From sequence record NC_041919.1: a DNA stretch of 64,000 nt, one strand, 5' to 3'. Origin of the DNA: Escherichia phage HP3. The position numbers and the translations under genes were made by a program. The notes beneath the pieces are model-generated. The model had not been told where the DNA came from. It did not search any database and saw only the letters and a program-made list of their open reading frames with translations. Numbering within the stretch: the stretch's first letter is position 1; each line of letters opens with the position of its first letter. This document shows, piece by piece, positions 6,517 to 64,000 of the stretch.

Positions 6517-7482
6517 TTATATTGCTCCTAATATTTTACTTTGCGAATTGACAATTCCTGTCATAGTATTAATGTTTGAAATGCTTCCTGCAGTTCCACC
6601 TAATCTACTGAGTCGTGAAAGCGAATTAGATAGTCCAGTAACACCTCCACTATTTCCGAGAACGCTTTGAATACCATTTATAGCAGCAGATTCAAGCCAT
6701 TCAAGCGCAGCTTGCCTATCAACTGCTCCAGCCTGCATGACTCTATATGCAAAAGTAACATCAAATGTAGTTATTTGGTTATCTCCATCATATGATAACT
6801 CAGGAGCGCTCACTGACACTGGAATGCATCCGGTGAACATTACCGCAGTATGAGGTAATCCATTGCGAGAATGAAGATTAACCTGAATATCTGCCTCGAC
6901 ATCTTGTGGCAAAGCACGCAGTCCAGTTACTGGGTCTTGAACAGCGTTAACCCAGTCTTGCATTGCACGATAGTTACAAGCTTCTGAATCCATTCTAAAT
7001 GAAATAACCAAAGGGTCTAATTCTCTCCCAGTTATACGAATATTAGGAGAGTTGTAGTTCCAGTCAGTTTCATAGGATAATCTATTCTCTGGCATTTTTA
7101 CAGAGTATATCATCAATCCAGATGAGTTATATGCCATGTTAAAGAAGTCAATTAAATATGTACCAACTGTAAATGAGCCTAATAAACTTTGAACTGTACG
7201 TTGACTCATGGCACCAATAAGATATTTACTAACCCCTGATTTTCTTATCAGTTTTTGTGTGCCAGCAGTAATTAGCGTGGTAATTCCCTGATTAATATCG
7301 CCTTGAGACAATCCTAACCAGTCTGAATTTAGACCCAAGTTATTATAAGAAAAGTTGCTAATTGAACTTATCAACGAAGAGCTTTTAGTTGATGGAGTTG
7401 TTGCAAAAACGCAGCTAAACATATTATTACGTTGGAAATCTGCGTTTATTGCTTGATTATTAAATTCCTCTAAAGAATACAT
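6517..7482 (-). CDS. 54: baseplate tail-tube initiator (gp54)
   Basis: 321 aa (T4 gp54 about 320); synteny 54-48-29. Confidence 0.85.
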   Translation of the reverse strand: MYSLEEFNNQAINADFQRNNMFSCVFATTPSTKSSSLISSISNFSYNNLGLNSDWLGLSQGDINQGITTLITAGTQKLIRKSGVSKYLIGAMSQRTVQSLLGSFTVGTYLIDFFNMAYNSSGLMIYSVKMPENRLSYETDWNYNSPNIRITGRELDPLVISFRMDSEACNYRAMQDWVNAVQDPVTGLRALPQDVEADIQVNLHSRNGLPHTAVMFTGCIPVSVSAPELSYDGDNQITTFDVTFAYRVMQAGAVDRQAALEWLESAAINGIQSVLGNSGGVTGLSNSLSRLSRLGGTAGSISNINTMTGIVNSQSKILGAI

Positions 7483-8576
7483 TAAAAAGTCCCCGCATAT
7501 AAAGAAGCACGATTTAACGTGATAATTTCTCTCATAGTAATCTCAAGAGTAAATGTACTAGGGAGGTTTGGAGCAATAGCTAATCCGTTAAAATTACCAT
7601 TCGGAGTTTTATCAAATCTAATACTTTGAATTTGACACGGTCCAAACACTTCTGTTTTTCCGTCAAATTTAGAAGTTGCGCCAAAGTTTTTAACCATCCA
7701 AATTGTCGGGTTTGAAACTACAAGAACGTTAGTTAAACTCGATGTCATTTTCTCAAATAACGTCTTATTTTTAACTGCATCTTCTGGAGTTAATGGCTCA
7801 ATAAAAGTAGAACGGTACCACTCATCTAAATATCCTTTTATTTCAGCAGCATATTGAGATTTACCAGTTTCACCGTAAGAAAAATAGTTAAAATACTGAT
7901 AGATATTAATAATAGCCATTAAATCTTCTGTTGAGCGCGGAGTCAAATCCCAAGTGAACACTTTAGTTCTATTTTCAGCACCGCCGTACATGCTTCTGGC
8001 TGTCGTATAAATCTGTTCATTATTATCAGCCATTATACCTTGTGTTATACTTTCCAGCGCTCCAAATACTGCGGTTGAAGCCATATTGCTTAGCACACCA
8101 GTAGCAGTACCTCCACCTTTTGTAATAAGACTATCTTGAACATCATTAAATCTATGTGATGACGTATCGACGTCAGATTTAGATCTAGGTAAAAGAATAT
8201 TTGCAACAGGAACTTTACTTATTGTTCTTGAATTATTATCTGATATTAGTCCATTTGATAGTTTTGATACTGTATTACTGATAGTGTTTCTGGCTGTACG
8301 TAAAATACTCGAAGATGAAGAAGAGTAGTTAGATCTCATCGTTCTAAGACTTCCAGAATCCCTAGATGACATATTGTATGCAGTAAATAATAATCCATTC
8401 TTATATAGATCTGTTACCTGGAAGTCCCCTGTAGTGTCATTACCACTAGCACGCCCAGTTGGAAACTGGGCTGTGTATGTTTTAGTTCCTACTTCTGATT
8501 TAGTACTCTGTCCGGCTGAAATTGTTTCACCGGACTTTTTAATTAAATCAGCAGTTATTTCTTTAACAATTGCCAT
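7482..8576 (-). CDS. 48: baseplate tail-tube cap (gp48)
   Basis: 364 aa, same as T4 gp48; synteny. Confidence 0.85.
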   Translation of the reverse strand: MAIVKEITADLIKKSGETISAGQSTKSEVGTKTYTAQFPTGRASGNDTTGDFQVTDLYKNGLLFTAYNMSSRDSGSLRTMRSNYSSSSSSILRTARNTISNTVSKLSNGLISDNNSRTISKVPVANILLPRSKSDVDTSSHRFNDVQDSLITKGGGTATGVLSNMASTAVFGALESITQGIMADNNEQIYTTARSMYGGAENRTKVFTWDLTPRSTEDLMAIINIYQYFNYFSYGETGKSQYAAEIKGYLDEWYRSTFIEPLTPEDAVKNKTLFEKMTSSLTNVLVVSNPTIWMVKNFGATSKFDGKTEVFGPCQIQSIRFDKTPNGNFNGLAIAPNLPSTFTLEITMREIITLNRASLYAGTF

Positions 8577-55967: not shown

Positions 55968-56040
55968 TGGGAATTAGCCAAGTTGGTAAGGCACTGGATT
56001 TTGATTCCAGGATGCAAAGGTTCGAGTCCTTTATTCCCAG
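55968..56040 (+). tRNA. tRNA-Gln (anticodon TTG)
   Basis: cloverleaf read by eye: acceptor tgggaat/attccca, anticodon loop ttTTGat, T-loop ttcgagt. Confidence 0.8.
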
Positions 56041-56041
56041 C

Positions 56042-56128
56042 GCGAGAATGGCCAAATTGGTAAAGGCACAGCACTTAAAATGCTGCGGAATGATTTCCTT
56101 GTGGGTTCGAGTCCCACTTCTCGCACCA
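56042..56128 (+). tRNA. tRNA-Leu (anticodon TAA), long variable arm
   Basis: acceptor gcgagaa/ttctcgc, anticodon loop ctTAAaa, T-arm tgggttcgagtccca, encoded CCA. Confidence 0.8.
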
Positions 56129-56133
56129 AATTT

Positions 56134-56207
<74 letters not shown>

Positions 56208-56217
56208 ATTTAATTTA

Positions 56218-56291
56218 CTCCGTGTAGCTCAGTTTGGTAGAGCGTCTGCTTTGGGAGCAGAATGTCGTAGGTTCAAATCCTGCCACGGAGA
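56218..56291 (+). tRNA. tRNA-Pro (anticodon TGG)
   Basis: acceptor ctccgtg/cacggag, anticodon stem tctgc/gcaga with loop ttTGGga, T-loop ttcaaat. Confidence 0.8.
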
Positions 56292-56293
56292 CT

Positions 56294-56383
56294 GGAGGCG
56301 TGGCAGAGTGGTTTAATGCACCGGTCTTGAAAACCGGCAGTCGCTCCGGCGACTCATAGGTTCAAATCCTATCGCCTCCGCCA
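56294..56383 (+). tRNA. tRNA-Ser (anticodon TGA), long variable arm
   Basis: acceptor ggaggcg/cgcctcc, anticodon stem ccggt/accgg with loop ctTGAaa, encoded CCA. Confidence 0.8.
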
Positions 56384-56388
56384 GTTTT

Positions 56389-56464
56389 GCTGATTTAGCT
56401 CAGTAGGTAGAGCAACTCACTTGTAATGAGAAGGTCGGCGGTTCGATTCCGTCAATCAGCACCA
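56389..56464 (+). tRNA. tRNA-Thr (anticodon TGT)
   Basis: acceptor gctgatt/aatcagc, anticodon loop ctTGTaa, T-arm ggcggttcgattccgtc, encoded CCA. Confidence 0.8.
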
Positions 56465-56465
56465 A

Positions 56466-56540
56466 GGCCCTGTAGCTGGAAGGTTCAAGCAAGCGACTCA
56501 TAATCGCCAGATGGTGGTTCAATTCCACCCAGGGCCACCA
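56466..56540 (+). tRNA. tRNA-Ile (anticodon CAT, presumably lysidine-modified as in T4; formally Met-like)
   Basis: acceptor ggccctg/cagggcc, anticodon loop ctCATaa, T-loop ttcaatt, encoded CCA. Confidence 0.7.
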
Positions 56541-56549
56541 AATTAATTT

Positions 56550-56636
56550 GGGGAGTTATCCCGTAGAGGTAGCGGTGTGGACTGTAAATTCATTGTCATT
56601 GCGACTCGGGTGGTTCGACTCCACCACTCCCCACCA
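56550..56636 (+). tRNA. tRNA-Tyr (anticodon GTA), long variable arm
   Basis: acceptor ggggagt/actcccc, anticodon stem gtgga/ttcat (two G-U pairs) with loop ctGTAaa, T-arm gggtggttcgactccacc, encoded CCA. Confidence 0.65.
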
Positions 56637-56640
56637 ATTT

Positions 56641-56715
56641 GGATGTGTAGCTCAATGGCAGAGCGATCGCCTGTTAAGCGATTGGTTATAGGTTCGAATC
56701 CTATCACGTCCGCCA
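56641..56715 (+). tRNA. tRNA-Asn (anticodon GTT)
   Basis: acceptor ggatgtg/cacgtcc, anticodon stem atcgc/gcgat with loop ctGTTaa, T-arm ataggttcgaatcctat, encoded CCA. Confidence 0.75.
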
Positions 56716-56829
56716 AATTTGTGACAACTGTCACATTAATATCTACTTGACGCGATTATAGGGGTTGAACTGATCACTCTTCTCTTAATTTCGTGTGAAG
56801 ACATCTTGATTGTTGGAGTAGGTATTAAT

Positions 56830-56905
56830 GTGGCCGTAGTTCAGTTGGTAGAACTCGAGATTGTGATTCTCGTAGTCATGGGTTCGACTCCCATCGGTCA
56901 CCCCA
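56830..56905 (+). tRNA. tRNA-His (anticodon GTG)
   Basis: acceptor gtggccg/cggtcac, D-arm gttcagttggtagaac, anticodon stem cgaga/tctcg with loop ttGTGat, T-arm atgggttcgactcccat, encoded CCA. Confidence 0.75.
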
Positions 56906-56909
56906 ATTA

Positions 56910-56985
56910 CGGGGCATAGCTCAGAAGGAAGAGCAAGGACCTTCTAAGTCCTAGGTCGTAGGTTCGATCCCTACTGCCTCGACCA
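56910..56985 (+). tRNA. tRNA-Arg (anticodon TCT)
   Basis: acceptor cggggca/tgcctcg, anticodon stem aggac/gtcct with loop ctTCTaa, T-arm gtaggttcgatccctac, encoded CCA. Confidence 0.8.
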
Positions 56986-59494: not shown

Positions 59495-60088
59495 ATGAAC
59501 ACACTGAAGAAAATTGTTGAGTTTATTCGCACTAAACTTGGTTCTGCTATGGCTAAAAATCTATCTGTCGAAGAACAGTATACTGCTGCAGCAGCAAAAC
59601 TACTTGATAAAATTAAAGATCTAAAAACTGCTTCTGTTAAATCTATTAACGAAGAAAAACGTATTCGTGAACTTGTTATCGAAAAGAATCGACAGGCCGA
59701 ATCAAAAGAGCGTGAAATTCGTAAACTTCTTTCCGAAGGCCAAGATGTAACAATGCATGCTAAACTCGGTTTACTATATCGTCGAACAGCTGAGCAGTTG
59801 ACTACTAAGGCTGACGGTTATGCTGAAATGCGAATTGAAATCGCCAAGAAAGTAGTTGAGTTAGATGATGCTCGTCAAGAACTTGCGGTTAAATTGGAAT
59901 ATATCCGTGAAACTCGTGCAGCGAATGCCCTTGGAATTAGTACTGCTGATGATGTAGTTGAAATTGCAGCACTGACTAAGGTTGATATTGAAGATACTCT
60001 TGCTCGAGTTGAAACCTTTAATGGTAATATTTCTGGGGTTGAAACTACCTCTGCCGATGTTCAGGAATATATTAATTCTCTGAAATAA
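59495..60088 (+). CDS. coiled-coil protein, weakly PspA/IM30-like
   Basis: 197 aa, predominantly charged helical sequence; short resemblance (EDTLARVE) and overall architecture reminiscent of PspA; RBS ctaagga; similarity not verified. Confidence 0.4.
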
Positions 60089-60130
60089 TGATAAGGGGCT
60101 TCGGGCCCCTATTACTTGGAGTAAATAGGA

Positions 60131-60739
60131 ATGAAAATGCAAAGTGATTTCAATTCAATGTTTGAAGAGTTTCAAAGACAGGTTGATGTTCCAGACCAAT
60201 TACTAAATGCTCTTAAACGCATGGCAGAAGGACGTAATTACTATTGGGGGTCTTCATATGAAACTGATGAAAGCCTTTCCGGAAGATTTTCTAGAGGTAA
60301 AAAGTCTTTAATACGTCCTGGAATACTCATTAACAGTATTGAATCAATTCATTCATTGACGTGTGATTTTGATGTTGAATTTACTGATTTCATTTCTCCT
60401 GAATGGACGGTTTGTTATTTAAACGACGATTTTGATTATCTCGGTGTTTATAGTTTAAGTGACGCATGGTTTAAACGTAATTTACAAAAGTCAAATTTAT
60501 TTTATATTGATACTACTGTAAAATTTCAGGGCAAGAAATATTTCTTTACTCTTATAGTTGATTCTGAAACGAAGCATGAAAATAAACGTATTCTTAGTAA
60601 AAAGAATATCTTAACTATTGTTGATGATCTTTTTGATAAATTTGTAGAAAATCCCAATTTTGAAAGTGATTTATTACTAGAAAAATTTGTTAAGGAATGT
60701 AGAGAATATGTCAAAGCCATCACTATACCTTCCAAGTAA
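60131..60739 (+). CDS. hypothetical protein
   Basis: 202-aa ORF; C-terminus EKFVKECREY shares a motif with the three downstream genes. Confidence 0.5.
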   Translation: MKMQSDFNSMFEEFQRQVDVPDQLLNALKRMAEGRNYYWGSSYETDESLSGRFSRGKKSLIRPGILINSIESIHSLTCDFDVEFTDFISPEWTVCYLNDDFDYLGVYSLSDAWFKRNLQKSNLFYIDTTVKFQGKKYFFTLIVDSETKHENKRILSKKNILTIVDDLFDKFVENPNFESDLLLEKFVKECREYVKAITIPSK

Positions 60740-61100
60740 ACCGTTGAAGTATGAATTAAAGCGTCAGATAATTTCTACTGATGTGTTAATAGGTCCTGTT
60801 ATACTCATATCATTTGTAATTCTATTGATTATTGGAGGTGTTTTAGATGTTATGACTGATATTGATTCTGGCGAAATACTTGTGTTAATGCTAATTCTTC
60901 CATTAATAGTTCCACTTTTATTAGTACCCGTAAATTGGGTAGGATACTGGTATCAAGGAAGGCATTATCGTAAACGCGTACGTGATTGGAAAGCACAGTG
61001 TAAAAAGATTAAAAAGGAACATCAGCTTAAACTTGCTGCGTATGAATTTGATGAAATTATGAAATTTGTTAAGGAATCACGATGCAAAAGCCAAAACTAA
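60687..61100 (+). CDS. small membrane protein, family member 1
   Basis: 137 aa; two hydrophobic helices (VLIGPVILISFVILLIIGGV, ILVLMLILPLIVPLLLVPV); C-terminus FVKESRCK. Confidence 0.5.
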   Translation: MLRNVENMSKPSLYLPSKPLKYELKRQIISTDVLIGPVILISFVILLIIGGVLDVMTDIDSGEILVLMLILPLIVPLLLVPVNWVGYWYQGRHYRKRVRDWKAQCKKIKKEHQLKLAAYEFDEIMKFVKESRCKSQN

Positions 61101-61444
61101 ATAAAGTCAAATATTCGTTTTCTGAGTCATTTTTAATTTTTGCTGTGGCGTTGGCTGCAGCTCTTGCAGGTAGTCTTTTTGGATTGTTAATTGACTGTCT
61201 TATTTTAAACATCGACGGCACAGTAAATATAACAGAAGTTTGGAGTGAGCTTTGTTATACTAAAATTATTTCATTGTTTTCATTCTTTGGTATCATTTTA
61301 TATTTTCATTATGATAATTTTAAAATAAATTGGCAAAGAAAAAAAGATTACAAAATACAATTAAAAGAATATAATAGCTACATGTCTTATATTGAAAATG
61401 AGTCAATGAAAGAGTTTGTGAGTGATTGTAGGAAAATTAAATGA
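61082..61444 (+). CDS. small membrane protein, family member 2
   Basis: 120 aa; hydrophobic helices; C-terminus FVSDCRKIK; ATGA overlap with the next gene. Confidence 0.5.
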   Translation: MQKPKLNKVKYSFSESFLIFAVALAAALAGSLFGLLIDCLILNIDGTVNITEVWSELCYTKIISLFSFFGIILYFHYDNFKINWQRKKDYKIQLKEYNSYMSYIENESMKEFVSDCRKIK

Positions 61445-61929
61445 TTTTAAAAACTCGCTGGTATGATTTAGATGATGGGGATGATGGCATTTCAGTTGAT
61501 AGAGTTGACTGGAATGGTTGTTCCGAAGATATGAAAAATTTGTTGATTAGGGAGTTTAGAATGGGATATCAAGCAGCTAAGCCATTTACTGTAACAGATG
61601 ATAAGTTCGTATGTATTCAAAACGGTCGCGCTAAGTTAACGAATGCTGATTGGTTCACAGATAAGAAGGTTCTTCTGTGGTATATCATTAGTCTTCCTAT
61701 ATCATCGTTCGTATTTTACTTTTTTATAAAAAATCCAATGGACAGAATAGGAGATTGGGTTCTTTTAACTATACTTGTTAATATTTTTACAGCAGCAGTA
61801 TTATCAGGAATATGGCGTATGTTCATTGAAATGCCATGGCGTTTACGCAGACAACAAAAGATTTTTGATGAAAAGAAATATGCTCAAAATTTAAATAACT
61901 TTATCACTGAATGCAGGAAATTAAAATGA
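61441..61929 (+). CDS. small membrane protein, family member 3
   Basis: 162 aa; hydrophobic helices; C-terminus FITECRKLK. Confidence 0.5.
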   Translation: MILKTRWYDLDDGDDGISVDRVDWNGCSEDMKNLLIREFRMGYQAAKPFTVTDDKFVCIQNGRAKLTNADWFTDKKVLLWYIISLPISSFVFYFFIKNPMDRIGDWVLLTILVNIFTAAVLSGIWRMFIEMPWRLRRQQKIFDEKKYAQNLNNFITECRKLK

Positions 61930-62366
61930 AAACATTATCAGCTGGTATTATCTTCATGACAGAAGATAAAGATTTATTTATGGGTCGGGTTACTGGTTCT
62001 CGTAAGCCTGGAATGATGGCACATCGCTGGGATATTCCAAAGGGACGTGTAGAAAGTTCTGATTTGAATGCACTGGAAGCTGCAAAAAGAGAATGCTTAG
62101 AAGAGACCGGTTTTAGCAATTATAATCCAGACCTTCTAGAAGACCTAGGTGTATTTAAATATTCTAGTAATAAAGACTTACAGTTATTTTATTATACGAT
62201 TCCAGTAGAGCATGAGATGTTTAGAAATTGCCATTGCGAGTCTTATTTTGAAAATAAAGATGGCGTTATGATTCCAGAGATGGATGCTTTTGCTCTTATT
62301 CCTCGTACTCAGTGGCAATATGTGATGGGTCCTTCACTTTACCGAATAATGAACAGCCTCTTTTAA
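61911..62366 (+). CDS. nudE: Nudix hydrolase NudE (e.1)
   Basis: 151 aa; Nudix box GRVESSDLNALEAAKRECLEETGF; immediately upstream of e as in T4; the second ATG at 61926 is an alternative start. Confidence 0.85.
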   Translation: MQEIKMKTLSAGIIFMTEDKDLFMGRVTGSRKPGMMAHRWDIPKGRVESSDLNALEAAKRECLEETGFSNYNPDLLEDLGVFKYSSNKDLQLFYYTIPVEHEMFRNCHCESYFENKDGVMIPEMDAFALIPRTQWQYVMGPSLYRIMNSLF

Positions 62367-62897
<531 letters not shown>

Positions 62898-62956: not shown

Positions 62957-63373
62957 ATGACTCGTATTAATTTGACTTTAGTATCTGAACTTGCTGATCA
63001 ACATTTAATCGCAGAATACCGTGAATTGCCGCGTGTTTTTGGTATAGTTCGTAAGCATGTGGCAAACGGTAAGCGCGTTAAAGATTTTAAAATATCTTCT
63101 AAATTTATTTTAGGTTCTGGTCATGTTACTTTCTTTTACGATAAGTTAGAATTTTTGCGAAAGCGTCAATCGGACATTATAACGGAATGCTTAAAACGCG
63201 GGTTCAGTATAAAAGATACTGAAGTTCCTGACATCAGCGATATTCCAGTAGAATGGAAAAATGATTATAATCCATGCAAATCAGCTATTAAGTTGAGTCA
63301 ACAACGACTCGATGAAAAAATTTTAATGAAGCCACACTGGTATAAGTATTACGGCAAAAATATTTACATTTAA
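62957..63373 (+). CDS. denV: endonuclease V (pyrimidine dimer DNA glycosylase)
   Basis: 138 aa, same as T4 endo V; N-terminus [29 protein letters not shown] matches recollection. Confidence 0.92.
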
Positions 63374-63518
63374 ATAACATGGGAATAACCTGGACCTCAT
63401 GATTCTGTGAGGGATTCCCGCCAACCTGTAATAAGGTCGAGCCCAAGTGCGGTAATGGGTAAATACAGAAATGGACAATTCATGCGCCATGGAATGGCCC
63501 AAACCTAGAGAGAACAAA

Positions 63519-64000
63519 ATGAGAACATTTTTAACTGGTCCTTATCTATCCCTGATGAATGCTTTTACACACCATTCTGATGCTAGAGTAGAAGAAATTT
63601 GTAAAAACGAATATATCCCGCCATTTGAAGACTTACTTAAACAGTATTGTACACTTCGACTAGATGGTGGGCGTCAATCTGGTAAATCAACTGCAGTAAC
63701 TAATTTTGCCGCTAATTGGTTGTATGACGGTGGAACAGTTATTGTTCTTTCTAATACTTCAGCTTACGCTAAAATTTCCGCAGATAATATTAAAAAGGAA
63801 TTTTCGCGTTATTCTAATGATGATATACGTTTTCGTTTATTTACTGATTCTGTGCGCAGTTTTATTGGTAATAAAGGAAGCAAGTTCAGAGGTTTATCGC
63901 TTTCGCGAATTTTGTATATAATTGATGAGCCTGTCAAATCTCCTGATATGGATAAGATTTATAGTGTCCATATTGACACTGTACACTGCTGCTGTAATAT
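63519..64000 (+). CDS. P-loop-containing hypothetical protein, 3'-partial (runs off the window end)
   Basis: ATG at 63519 with RBS gagag; open frame to the window edge (about 160 codons); Walker A-like DGGRQSGKST; absent from the ORF track, presumably because no stop lies in the window. Confidence 0.5.
   Translation, partial: MRTFLTGPYLSLMNAFTHHSDARVEEICKNEYIPPFEDLLKQYCTLRLDGGRQSGKSTAVTNFAANWLYDGGTVIVLSNTSAYAKISADNIKKEFSRYSNDDIRFRLFTDSVRSFIGNKGSKFRGLSLSRILYIIDEPVKSPDMDKIYSVHIDTVHCCCN

Follow-up and report, generated by a model that had tools for sequence, protein, structure and literature searches.

A recurring C-terminal tail in the e.5-to-e.2 gene cluster of Escherichia phage HP3 and its T-even-type relatives

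In their hyperplastic regions, T4-type phages carry PeSL cassettes, short conserved sequences flanking ORFans: they are intergenic, ~100 bp long, combine a sigma-70 promoter with a terminator stem-loop and end in the Shine-Dalgarno sequence and start of the next gene, and crossover between them excises the flanked gene (PMC2839356; PMC4122927). T4 also joins minihomologies of 3-13 nucleotides (nt) in a UvsX-dependent manner (PMC8262927), and amplifies or deletes segments at short homologies (PMC9391042). A further related arrangement is the translationally coupled, ATGA-type junction of compact phage operons, with overlapping stop and start codons and a Shine-Dalgarno sequence inside the upstream open reading frame (ORF). 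Here we analyse a stretch of 64,000 nt of Escherichia phage HP3 (NC_041919.1; the window), in which four consecutive genes, assigned by sequence to the T4 accessory genes e.5, e.4, e.3 and e.2, end in a recurrent peptide (the tail) whose codons contain the Shine-Dalgarno sequence of the following gene. The genes and their tails are these:

60131-60739, plus strand: e.5 (T4 Y06P family), tail-bearing soluble protein of 202 amino acids (aa), 97% identical to T4 e.5; phrog_2607.
60677-60703, plus strand: e.5 tail L-E-K-F-V-K-E-C-R; AAGGAA at 60692-60697 (Lys-Glu codons) is the Shine-Dalgarno sequence for e.4.
60708-61100, plus strand: e.4 (Y06O family), 130 aa, N-terminus inside, transmembrane (TM) segments 31-49 and 57-75, basic cytoplasmic helix, tail.
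61056-61082, plus strand: e.4 tail I-M-K-F-V-K-E-S-R, with Ser for Cys; AAGGAA at 61071-61076 is the Shine-Dalgarno sequence for e.3.
61082-61444, plus strand: e.3 (UniProt Y06N), 120 aa, TM hairpin and long helix 58-119 with the tail at its end.
61406-61444, plus strand: e.3 tail M-K-E-F-V-S-D-C-R-K-I-K and stop; TGT AGG AAA ATT AAA TGA, with AGGA at 61430-61433 as the Shine-Dalgarno sequence for e.2.
61441-61929, plus strand: e.2 (Y06M family), 162 aa, acidic 75-aa N-terminal domain, TM segments 78-96 and 106-124, short basic helix, tail.
61891-61929, plus strand: e.2 tail L-N-N-F-I-T-E-C-R-K-L-K and stop; TGC AGG AAA TTA AAA TGA, with AGGA at 61915-61918 as the Shine-Dalgarno sequence for nudE.

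Like PeSL cassettes, the tails flank e.4, e.3 and e.2, and the excision of a flanked gene is documented: T2, G4498 and an IMG/VR contig (IMGVR4) have lost e.2 and retain a hybrid tail. Unlike them, the tails lie in coding sequence and extend into the next gene, have only 9-16 nt of identity and are conserved as a peptide. The other hallmarks of PeSL fail as well: all four junctions overlap by 4-32 nt instead of being intergenic, promoter-like sites number 27 against 22.6 ± 4.1 in shuffled sequences with none at the junctions, and three of the four junctions are no more stably folded than shuffled sequence, e.3/e.2 alone reaching z = -2.4. The e.2 deletion and a natural e.4::e.2 chimera bear the signature of UvsX minihomology deletion in T4, one copy of the repeat being kept (PMC8262927; PMC9391042). 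Deletions of this kind selected in the laboratory use arbitrary repeats, whereas the repeat in this cluster encodes a conserved motif, and deletion therefore leaves the two reading frames and their translational coupling intact. The junctions also resemble ordinary coupled ones, in that the start overlaps or abuts the upstream stop and the Shine-Dalgarno sequence lies 5-13 nt upstream, inside the upstream ORF, and coupling is accordingly predicted; ordinary junctions, however, have no common peptide, whereas four in a row have one here, as do their equivalents from nine T-even-type genera.

Positions 60100-61950 show 100% DNA identity with Escherichia phage HP3.1 and match 503 phage records at >=90%, nearly all of them Tequatrovirus, the genus to which the window is assigned on sequence. 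The ORF names were taken from annotated relatives (RB68 and T4 NC_000866). The four ORFs share order and lengths with those of T4, with amino-acid identities of 92-97% for e.5, e.4 and e.3 and 83% for e.2; their PHROG matches range from E = 1e-58 to 5e-110, and the synteny e.6 - e.5 - e.4 - e.3 - e.2 - nudE - e is present in the window. No intergenic base separates the genes from e.5 to nudE, the overlaps being 32 (e.5/e.4), 19 (e.4/e.3), 4 and 4 nt. Hydropathy gives no TM segment in e.5 and two apiece in e.4, e.3 and e.2, in line with the initial annotation of a 202-aa ORF followed by three small two-helix membrane proteins.

The recurrent ending that had been noticed on four consecutive genes is real. 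The proteins terminate in LEKFVKECREYVKAITIPSK (e.5), IMKFVKESRCKSQN (e.4), MKEFVSDCRKIK (e.3) and LNNFITECRKLK (e.2), each followed by the stop. The pattern F[VI]x[ED][CS]R occurs exactly four times in the six frames of the 64 kb, always at one of these C-termini; mononucleotide shuffles gave a mean of 0.3 matches, and none of 200 shuffles placed one near the end of an ORF of >=60 aa. In a whole-genome scan of T4, no other gene carried the core motif at its C-terminus, which rules out a motif general to T4 early ORFs. The tail is thus non-random and confined to the e.5-e.2 cluster. The form first given for it, F-[VI]-x-[ED]-C-R-[KE], holds in kind; in e.4, however, Ser occupies the motif position and a Cys follows two residues on. 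The sequences argue for a protein-level C-terminal motif, [LIM]-x-x-F-[IV]-x-x-C-R followed by a basic residue, beyond which e.5 extends by 11 codons and e.4 by 5. A separate observation concerns T4 dmd (retrieved locus L020, 20371-20553), whose product ends in KKVCEVDCRG, with the Shine-Dalgarno sequence GAGGA of the next gene in its Arg-Gly codons; this faint D-C-R echo, which has no Phe-Ile/Val part, is probably a coincidence.

Tails fitting the consensus [LIM]-x-x-F-[IVL]-x-x-C-[RK] were found in RB69 (Mosigvirus), VR7 and VR26 (Gaprivervirus), JS10 (Dhakavirus), PEi20 and CIP9 (Kanagawavirus), KP179 (Jiaodavirus), FBB1 (Roskildevirus, at least six genes in a row) and PWKp18 (Marfavirus), and were absent from Slopekvirus phiEap-3. 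In the genera examined, tail-bearing genes always lie between e.6 and e. At least six protein bodies carry the tail: e.5-like soluble proteins, e.4-, e.3- and e.2-like membrane proteins, RB69 ORF133c and a soluble family of ~95 aa; JS10_122 and an unannotated ORF of KP179 bear it too. The latter, an ORF of ~105 aa in an annotation gap of this Klebsiella phage (retrieved locus L012, ~7430-7790, between nudE and e), ends in LELFIAKCRAK. Both the tail and the junctions are conserved down to body identities of ~20-30%.

Codon usage in the tails is free. Over 39 distinct tails, Phe is encoded by TTT in 30 and TTC in 9, Cys by TGT and TGC in 15 each, and Arg by AGA (12), AGG (11), CGT (9) and CGA (5). 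The e.5-like proteins can be aligned between genera at 15-20% body identity; in an alignment of 7 sequences the invariant columns are M1, N98, F186, C190 and R191, and N98, C190 and R191 stay invariant in 21, where F186 is near-invariant. Nei-Gojobori comparisons among Tequatrovirus alleles, made per protein segment, gave ratios of non-synonymous to synonymous substitution rates (dN/dS) of 0.36-0.76 for the TM hairpin with its periplasmic loop and of 0.03-0.19 for the cytoplasmic helices of e.4 and e.3, with values up to 0.29 in one e.2 comparison. Changes in the tails are too few for dN/dS and almost all synonymous (two synonymous and no non-synonymous in the e.2 tail). This pattern indicates that the tail is kept by purifying selection on amino acids while its codons change. 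Among Tequatroviruses, e.4, e.3 and e.2 are divergent and mosaic in the hairpin and loop (60755-60934, 61115-61294 and 61595-61834), which have 77-85% nucleotide identity; their divergence could reflect relaxed constraint or diversifying selection on a membrane-exposed face.

An AlphaFold2 model of e.3 (mean predicted local distance difference test score, pLDDT, 90.4) consists of a helix at 13-42 and an unbroken helix at 58-119, in which the second TM segment is predicted to extend into the cytoplasm as a ~45-residue stalk capped by the tail. Charge distribution, by the positive-inside rule, suggests that both termini of the membrane proteins, and hence their tails, are cytoplasmic. A constrained stalk and tip, the same tip on a soluble protein and fast-evolving hairpins together suggest a docking or assembly helix, and we lean, with slightly better than even confidence, towards the tail being a selected C-terminal motif that acts at the protein level in this way, its RNA and DNA properties being by-products. 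The tail would then form the tip of a long cytoplasmic alpha-helix on otherwise unrelated bodies in the variable e.6-to-e stretch. Through it, soluble e.5 and a variable assortment of small inner-membrane proteins might engage one common partner at the inner membrane face, be it the tail-bearing proteins themselves or a single phage or host factor, with the membrane hairpins supplying variable specificity. A Shine-Dalgarno sequence would fall in the tail because the end of one T4 gene is packed against the start of the next and the codons for Lys, Glu and Arg are rich in purines. The 9-16 nt of repeated tail DNA would moreover be a good minihomology for the UvsX-type recombination of T4, by which whole genes may be deleted in frame with the coupling to the next gene kept, and presumably duplicated or swapped as well.

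Several points weigh against this. The docking role is one that we infer. The e.5 model, which matched no fold, has low confidence (pLDDT 60, ~50 in the tail helix) and so is silent on whether the e.5 tail is free or packed. Tails of the e.4 type carry Ser, Ile, Val or Met in place of Cys, which is therefore not required universally, and VR7 has e.4, e.3 and e.2 without an e.5-like gene, so that e.5 is no obligatory hub. Dual coding in the 32- and 19-nt overlaps must supply part of the conservation at the e.5/e.4 and e.4/e.3 junctions. Finally, an engineered, deposited T4 genome lacks the whole e.2-e.7 block and e.2 is broken in T4; any function would thus be conditional, and the genes dispensable in the laboratory. 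Processing by the prohead protease, with its I/L-x-E site, was considered as another role and rejected, the Glu not being conserved (G, M, H, Y and Q occur); the tail-bearing proteins are early membrane or cytoplasmic proteins and are not known as head proteins.

Pure common descent would make all tail genes tandem duplicates of one ancestor, with N-terminal parts diverged or replaced and the tail as their slowest-evolving remnant. The tail-bearing genes are adjacent, the succession of two TM segments, basic helix and tail recurs in e.4, e.3, e.2 and ORF133c, and FBB1 has its long row of such genes. In profile comparisons with hhalign, e.4 and e.3 matched with 95.5% probability over 55 columns, and still with 79.6% when the tails were cut off; e.3 also matched the PHROG of e.4 over its full length (E = 1e-3), and the two have in common the N-terminus M-x-K-P-x-L, their architecture and their adjacency. 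For e.3 and ORF133c the probability was 92% over 39 columns, only with the tail included. Pairs involving e.5, e.2 or the ~95-aa family aligned over the 12-17 tail columns only and lost their signal once the tails were removed, every pair involving e.5 or e.2 falling to 2.6% or below. By these comparisons e.4 and e.3 are tandem paralogs and the sole demonstrable pair among the four, e.5 and e.2 sharing the tail only. The tandemly amplified paralog family proposed in the initial annotation therefore stands for e.4 and e.3 and fails for e.5 and e.2, and the cluster appears to be made up partly of tandem paralogs and partly of unrelated bodies with one common C-terminal module. The e.5 and ~95-aa proteins are soluble, differ in predicted fold and show no resemblance to the others outside the 12-17 residues; moreover, a remnant needs a reason for staying conserved, which leads back to protein function. 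Common descent as the whole explanation is accordingly unlikely in our judgement.

The tail might instead be selected primarily as a recombination junction, a coding counterpart of PeSL that new genes acquire as an in-frame scar, and much of what we observed on recombination speaks to this. PeSL itself provides the precedent (PMC2839356), and the tail sits on unrelated bodies solely in the variable region. In the exact e.2 deletions, the e.3 body carries an e.2-type tail (TGCAGGAAATTAAAATG) followed by nudE. The junction reads GAG TTT GTG AGT GAT from e.3, then TGC AGG AAA TTA AAA TGA, then nudE; its partners are the e.3 tail on the left and the e.2 tail on the right, with 9 nt of identity (TGCAGGAAA) and a further near-match, so that the hybrid tail places the crossover inside the shared TGCAGGAAA. 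At least two haplotype backgrounds carry the deletion (e.3 with Ser or Ile at the x position, different e.4 alleles). Among the Tequatrovirus-level records, ~502 have e.4 and ~446 have e.2, ~56 of ~500 having e.4 without a match to e.2. The latter gene is ancestral, as it adjoins nudE or is separated from it by one gene in Gapriver-, Dhaka-, Mosig- and Kanagawavirus. It also decays repeatedly: apart from the T2-like deletion, it has an in-frame stop in phage ESh25 and is frameshifted to 102 aa in reference T4 (NC_000866, 67490-67960, compared with the intact gene at 61441-61929 of the window), where its remainder, including the DNA of the FITECRKLK tail, persists in another frame.

The tails of e.5 and e.4, which flank e.4, share an identical 16 nt (AAATTTGTTAAGGAAT), and the starts that follow them are alike (ATGTCAAAGCCA and ATGCAAAAGCCA), the kind of trace that unequal crossing-over between tails would have left in giving rise to e.4 and e.3, as we suppose it did. 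Identity profiles show junction bins at 97-100%, between which the hairpin parts form alleles that reassort independently among phages. In RB69, a 3-kb insertion located exactly at the e.3/e.2 junction holds another tail gene. Recombination in the cluster is nevertheless not limited to the tails. In UFV09-like phages (OP555981.1, retrieved locus L023, 2501-2821), residues 1-31 of e.4 are fused in frame to e.2 from its first TM segment, with loss of e.3, and this chimera was made at an unrelated 6-nt sequence, TCCTGT, inside the TM segments; another variant has an e.4 that lacks both TM segments. The repeated tail DNA, to judge by the hybrid tails, is sometimes the crossover point at which a whole gene is removed, and what sets the tails apart is simply that, of the repeats yielding in-frame products, they are the longest. 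The idea of a junction cassette promoting module shuffling is thus borne out by the exact e.2 deletion and by bodies reassorting between conserved junctions, and not by the second deletion.

Further evidence makes a tail selected for recombination improbable. Bar two pairs, the tails within one genome differ synonymously (RB69 e.3 against ORF133c: TTT/TTC, AAG/AAA, AGA/CGA), which leaves homology tracts of only 6-16 nt, and across genera amino-acid conservation exceeds nucleotide conservation. Since T4 uses any homology of 3-13 nt, the tail is not marked as special, and breakpoints would fall at gene ends in any case, out-of-frame products being lost.

A more elaborate form of the protein-level reading, which we regard as quite doubtful, takes the tail for an assembly code. 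The Cys-Arg tips of e.4-, e.3- and e.2-type helices and of e.5 would meet at a single hub, such as a metal or partner site common to them all or a hetero-oligomeric bundle of helices, and build a modular inner-membrane complex; the hairpins would be swapped as cassettes via the tail sequence, in an integron-like, in-frame system that diversifies a host-interaction device.

In the window, the next gene starts 5-14 nt past the Cys or Ser codon at all four junctions, with a Shine-Dalgarno-like run within the tail codons, and e.3/e.2 and e.2/nudE have ATGA stop/start overlaps. The motif TGY-AGG-AAA with an overlapping ATG, proposed in the initial annotation for all four, was found in e.3 and e.2 only (TGY AGG AAA WTW AAA TGA); in e.5 and e.4 the Shine-Dalgarno sequence comes from the Lys-Glu codons AAG GAA, and Arg is encoded by AGA and CGA. 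Taken literally, the claim that the tail doubles as a ribosome-binding site is correct. The arrangement is also generic for T4: in kb 1-50 of its genome, 27 of 82 pairs of neighbouring genes on the same strand overlap and 43 have a gap of <=8 nt, in which case the Shine-Dalgarno sequence must sit in the upstream ORF, and the C-terminal peptides are all different. Such overlap comes with the usual packing of T4 genes and leaves the conservation of the tail unexplained. Among 60 tails from 19 loci, the distance from the Cys codon to the next start is 5 to 44 nt (28 nt for VR26_139, 34 nt for CIP9_248 and 44 nt for the KP179 ORF), and for two tails, one of them JS10_122, there is no nearby start codon; the Shine-Dalgarno sequence comes either from the x-x (K-E) codons or from R-K, R-G or R-R codons. 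Folding of the window junctions gave a moderately stable hairpin at e.3/e.2 and nothing better than shuffles at the other three, and a general RNA hairpin at the junctions was rejected, just one of four being structured. A resemblance of AAAUUUGUUAAGG to the RegA operator was considered and dropped. That the tail serves mainly to drive translation of the next gene through a Shine-Dalgarno sequence, a U-rich enhancer and termination-reinitiation coupling, the peptide being incidental, would suit the Shine-Dalgarno-like runs, the ATGA overlaps, the U-rich F-[IV] codons and the e.3/e.2 fold, which encloses both Shine-Dalgarno sequence and AUG, but is very improbable in view of free synonymous turnover with fixed amino acids, the differing codons and start distances, the tails without an adjacent start, the three unstructured junctions and the 43 other T4 junctions that have in-ORF Shine-Dalgarno sequences with unrelated peptides.

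As to function, searches with the four proteins in Pfam (local copy), NCBIfam, PADLOC and PDB sequences returned nothing above noise, and the newer Pfam entries (Phage_T4_Y06P, Y06O, Y06M) just name families: PF26876 (Phage_T4_Y06P) was found on homologs of e.5, PF26873 on a relative of e.4 and PF26896 on a relative of e.2. A profile of e.4, e.3 and e.2 run against 1.84 billion representatives retrieved nine proteins, eight of them e.2-e.4 variants; the ninth (P0110, E = 3.6e-4) is an unrelated repeat protein and was discarded. With e.3, a word-indexed protein search gave close relatives only, and a search for related loci only four. Public records label e.3 and e.4 homologs inconsistently as 'sulfurtransferase', 'DNA primase', 'major capsid protein' or 'membrane spanning protein', none of which is backed by domain searches; the rhodanese/sulfurtransferase label was rejected, as no Pfam or NCBIfam rhodanese match was obtained and the proteins consist of a TM hairpin and a helix. 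Searches of the literature by gene and UniProt names found no paper on e.2-e.5, and we came across no description of the common tail in papers or database records.

Class II holins and small phage membrane proteins such as T4 Imm are ~100 aa long, with two TM segments, both termini inside and a highly basic cytoplasmic C-terminus. The e.4, e.3 and e.2 proteins resemble them in size, topology and basic C-terminus, and PHROGs, Pfam, NCBIfam and PADLOC yielded no similarity to holins or superinfection-exclusion proteins. T4 has its own holin, t, and e.2-e.5 sit in an early-gene block. For the roles in lysis control, exclusion or anti-defence suggested at the outset, the only hint is the fast non-synonymous change estimated for the membrane hairpins.

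Around the four genes, the map confirms that nudE and e lie directly downstream:

59495-60088: e.6, named from annotated relatives.
60094-60110, no strand: stem-loop rich in G+C within the 42-nt spacer of e.6 and e.5; it bounds the block upstream.
61926-62366, plus strand: nudE (e.1), Nudix hydrolase, Pfam NUDIX E = 3e-13, closing the gap-free e.5-to-nudE block.
62403-62897: e (lysozyme), named from annotated relatives.
62957-63373: denV, named from annotated relatives.

The spacer stem-loop carries a terminator annotation in phage G4498. Downstream, the block is bounded by the known hairpin (62366-62410) by which the ribosome-binding site of e is hidden in early transcripts; in the window it is far more stable than shuffles (z = -2.9). 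The genes ipII and ipIII, located between e and denV in T4, are missing from the window, and ~145 non-coding nt between denV and the next ORF (63374-63519) matched no Rfam family. A cluster of ten tRNA genes (Rfam RF00005) was found at 55968-56982; the T4 reference has eight.

In other genera, the same region contains a second tandem family of small ORFs, absent from the window, which end in G-W-V-S-S-S-x-x-C directly before the stop and have the junction TAA GGAAAnnnn ATG (stop, Shine-Dalgarno sequence and a fixed 10-nt spacing). In RB69 these ORFs belong to the 3-kb insertion at the e.3/e.2 junction. The family was located as follows:

RB69 ORF139c-136c: retrieved locus L004, 4231-5026.
VR7 142c-138c: retrieved locus L005, 3984-5243.
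PEi20: retrieved locus L007, 49-803 and 1143-1343.
PWKp18: retrieved locus L008, 4778-5828 and 6151-6348.

Overall, the genes and the deletion mechanism were already known and the coupling is ordinary. The peptide module itself appears undescribed, as do its confinement to a single hyperplastic region, its occurrence on bodies that are not related and its second role as a minihomology. The analysis separates what is ordinary here, a ribosome-binding site within the upstream gene, from what is unusual, a recurring peptide, two things that a reading of the sequence alone had linked. It also points to a natural route of in-frame cassette loss, in which a repeated coding motif would let minihomology recombination delete or reshuffle genes, the tail being a coding analogue of the PeSL linkers. 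For T4 and its relatives, in which e.2-e.8 form a classic block of genes without assigned function, a common selected tail gives a first handle and predicts that their products may share a common partner or complex.

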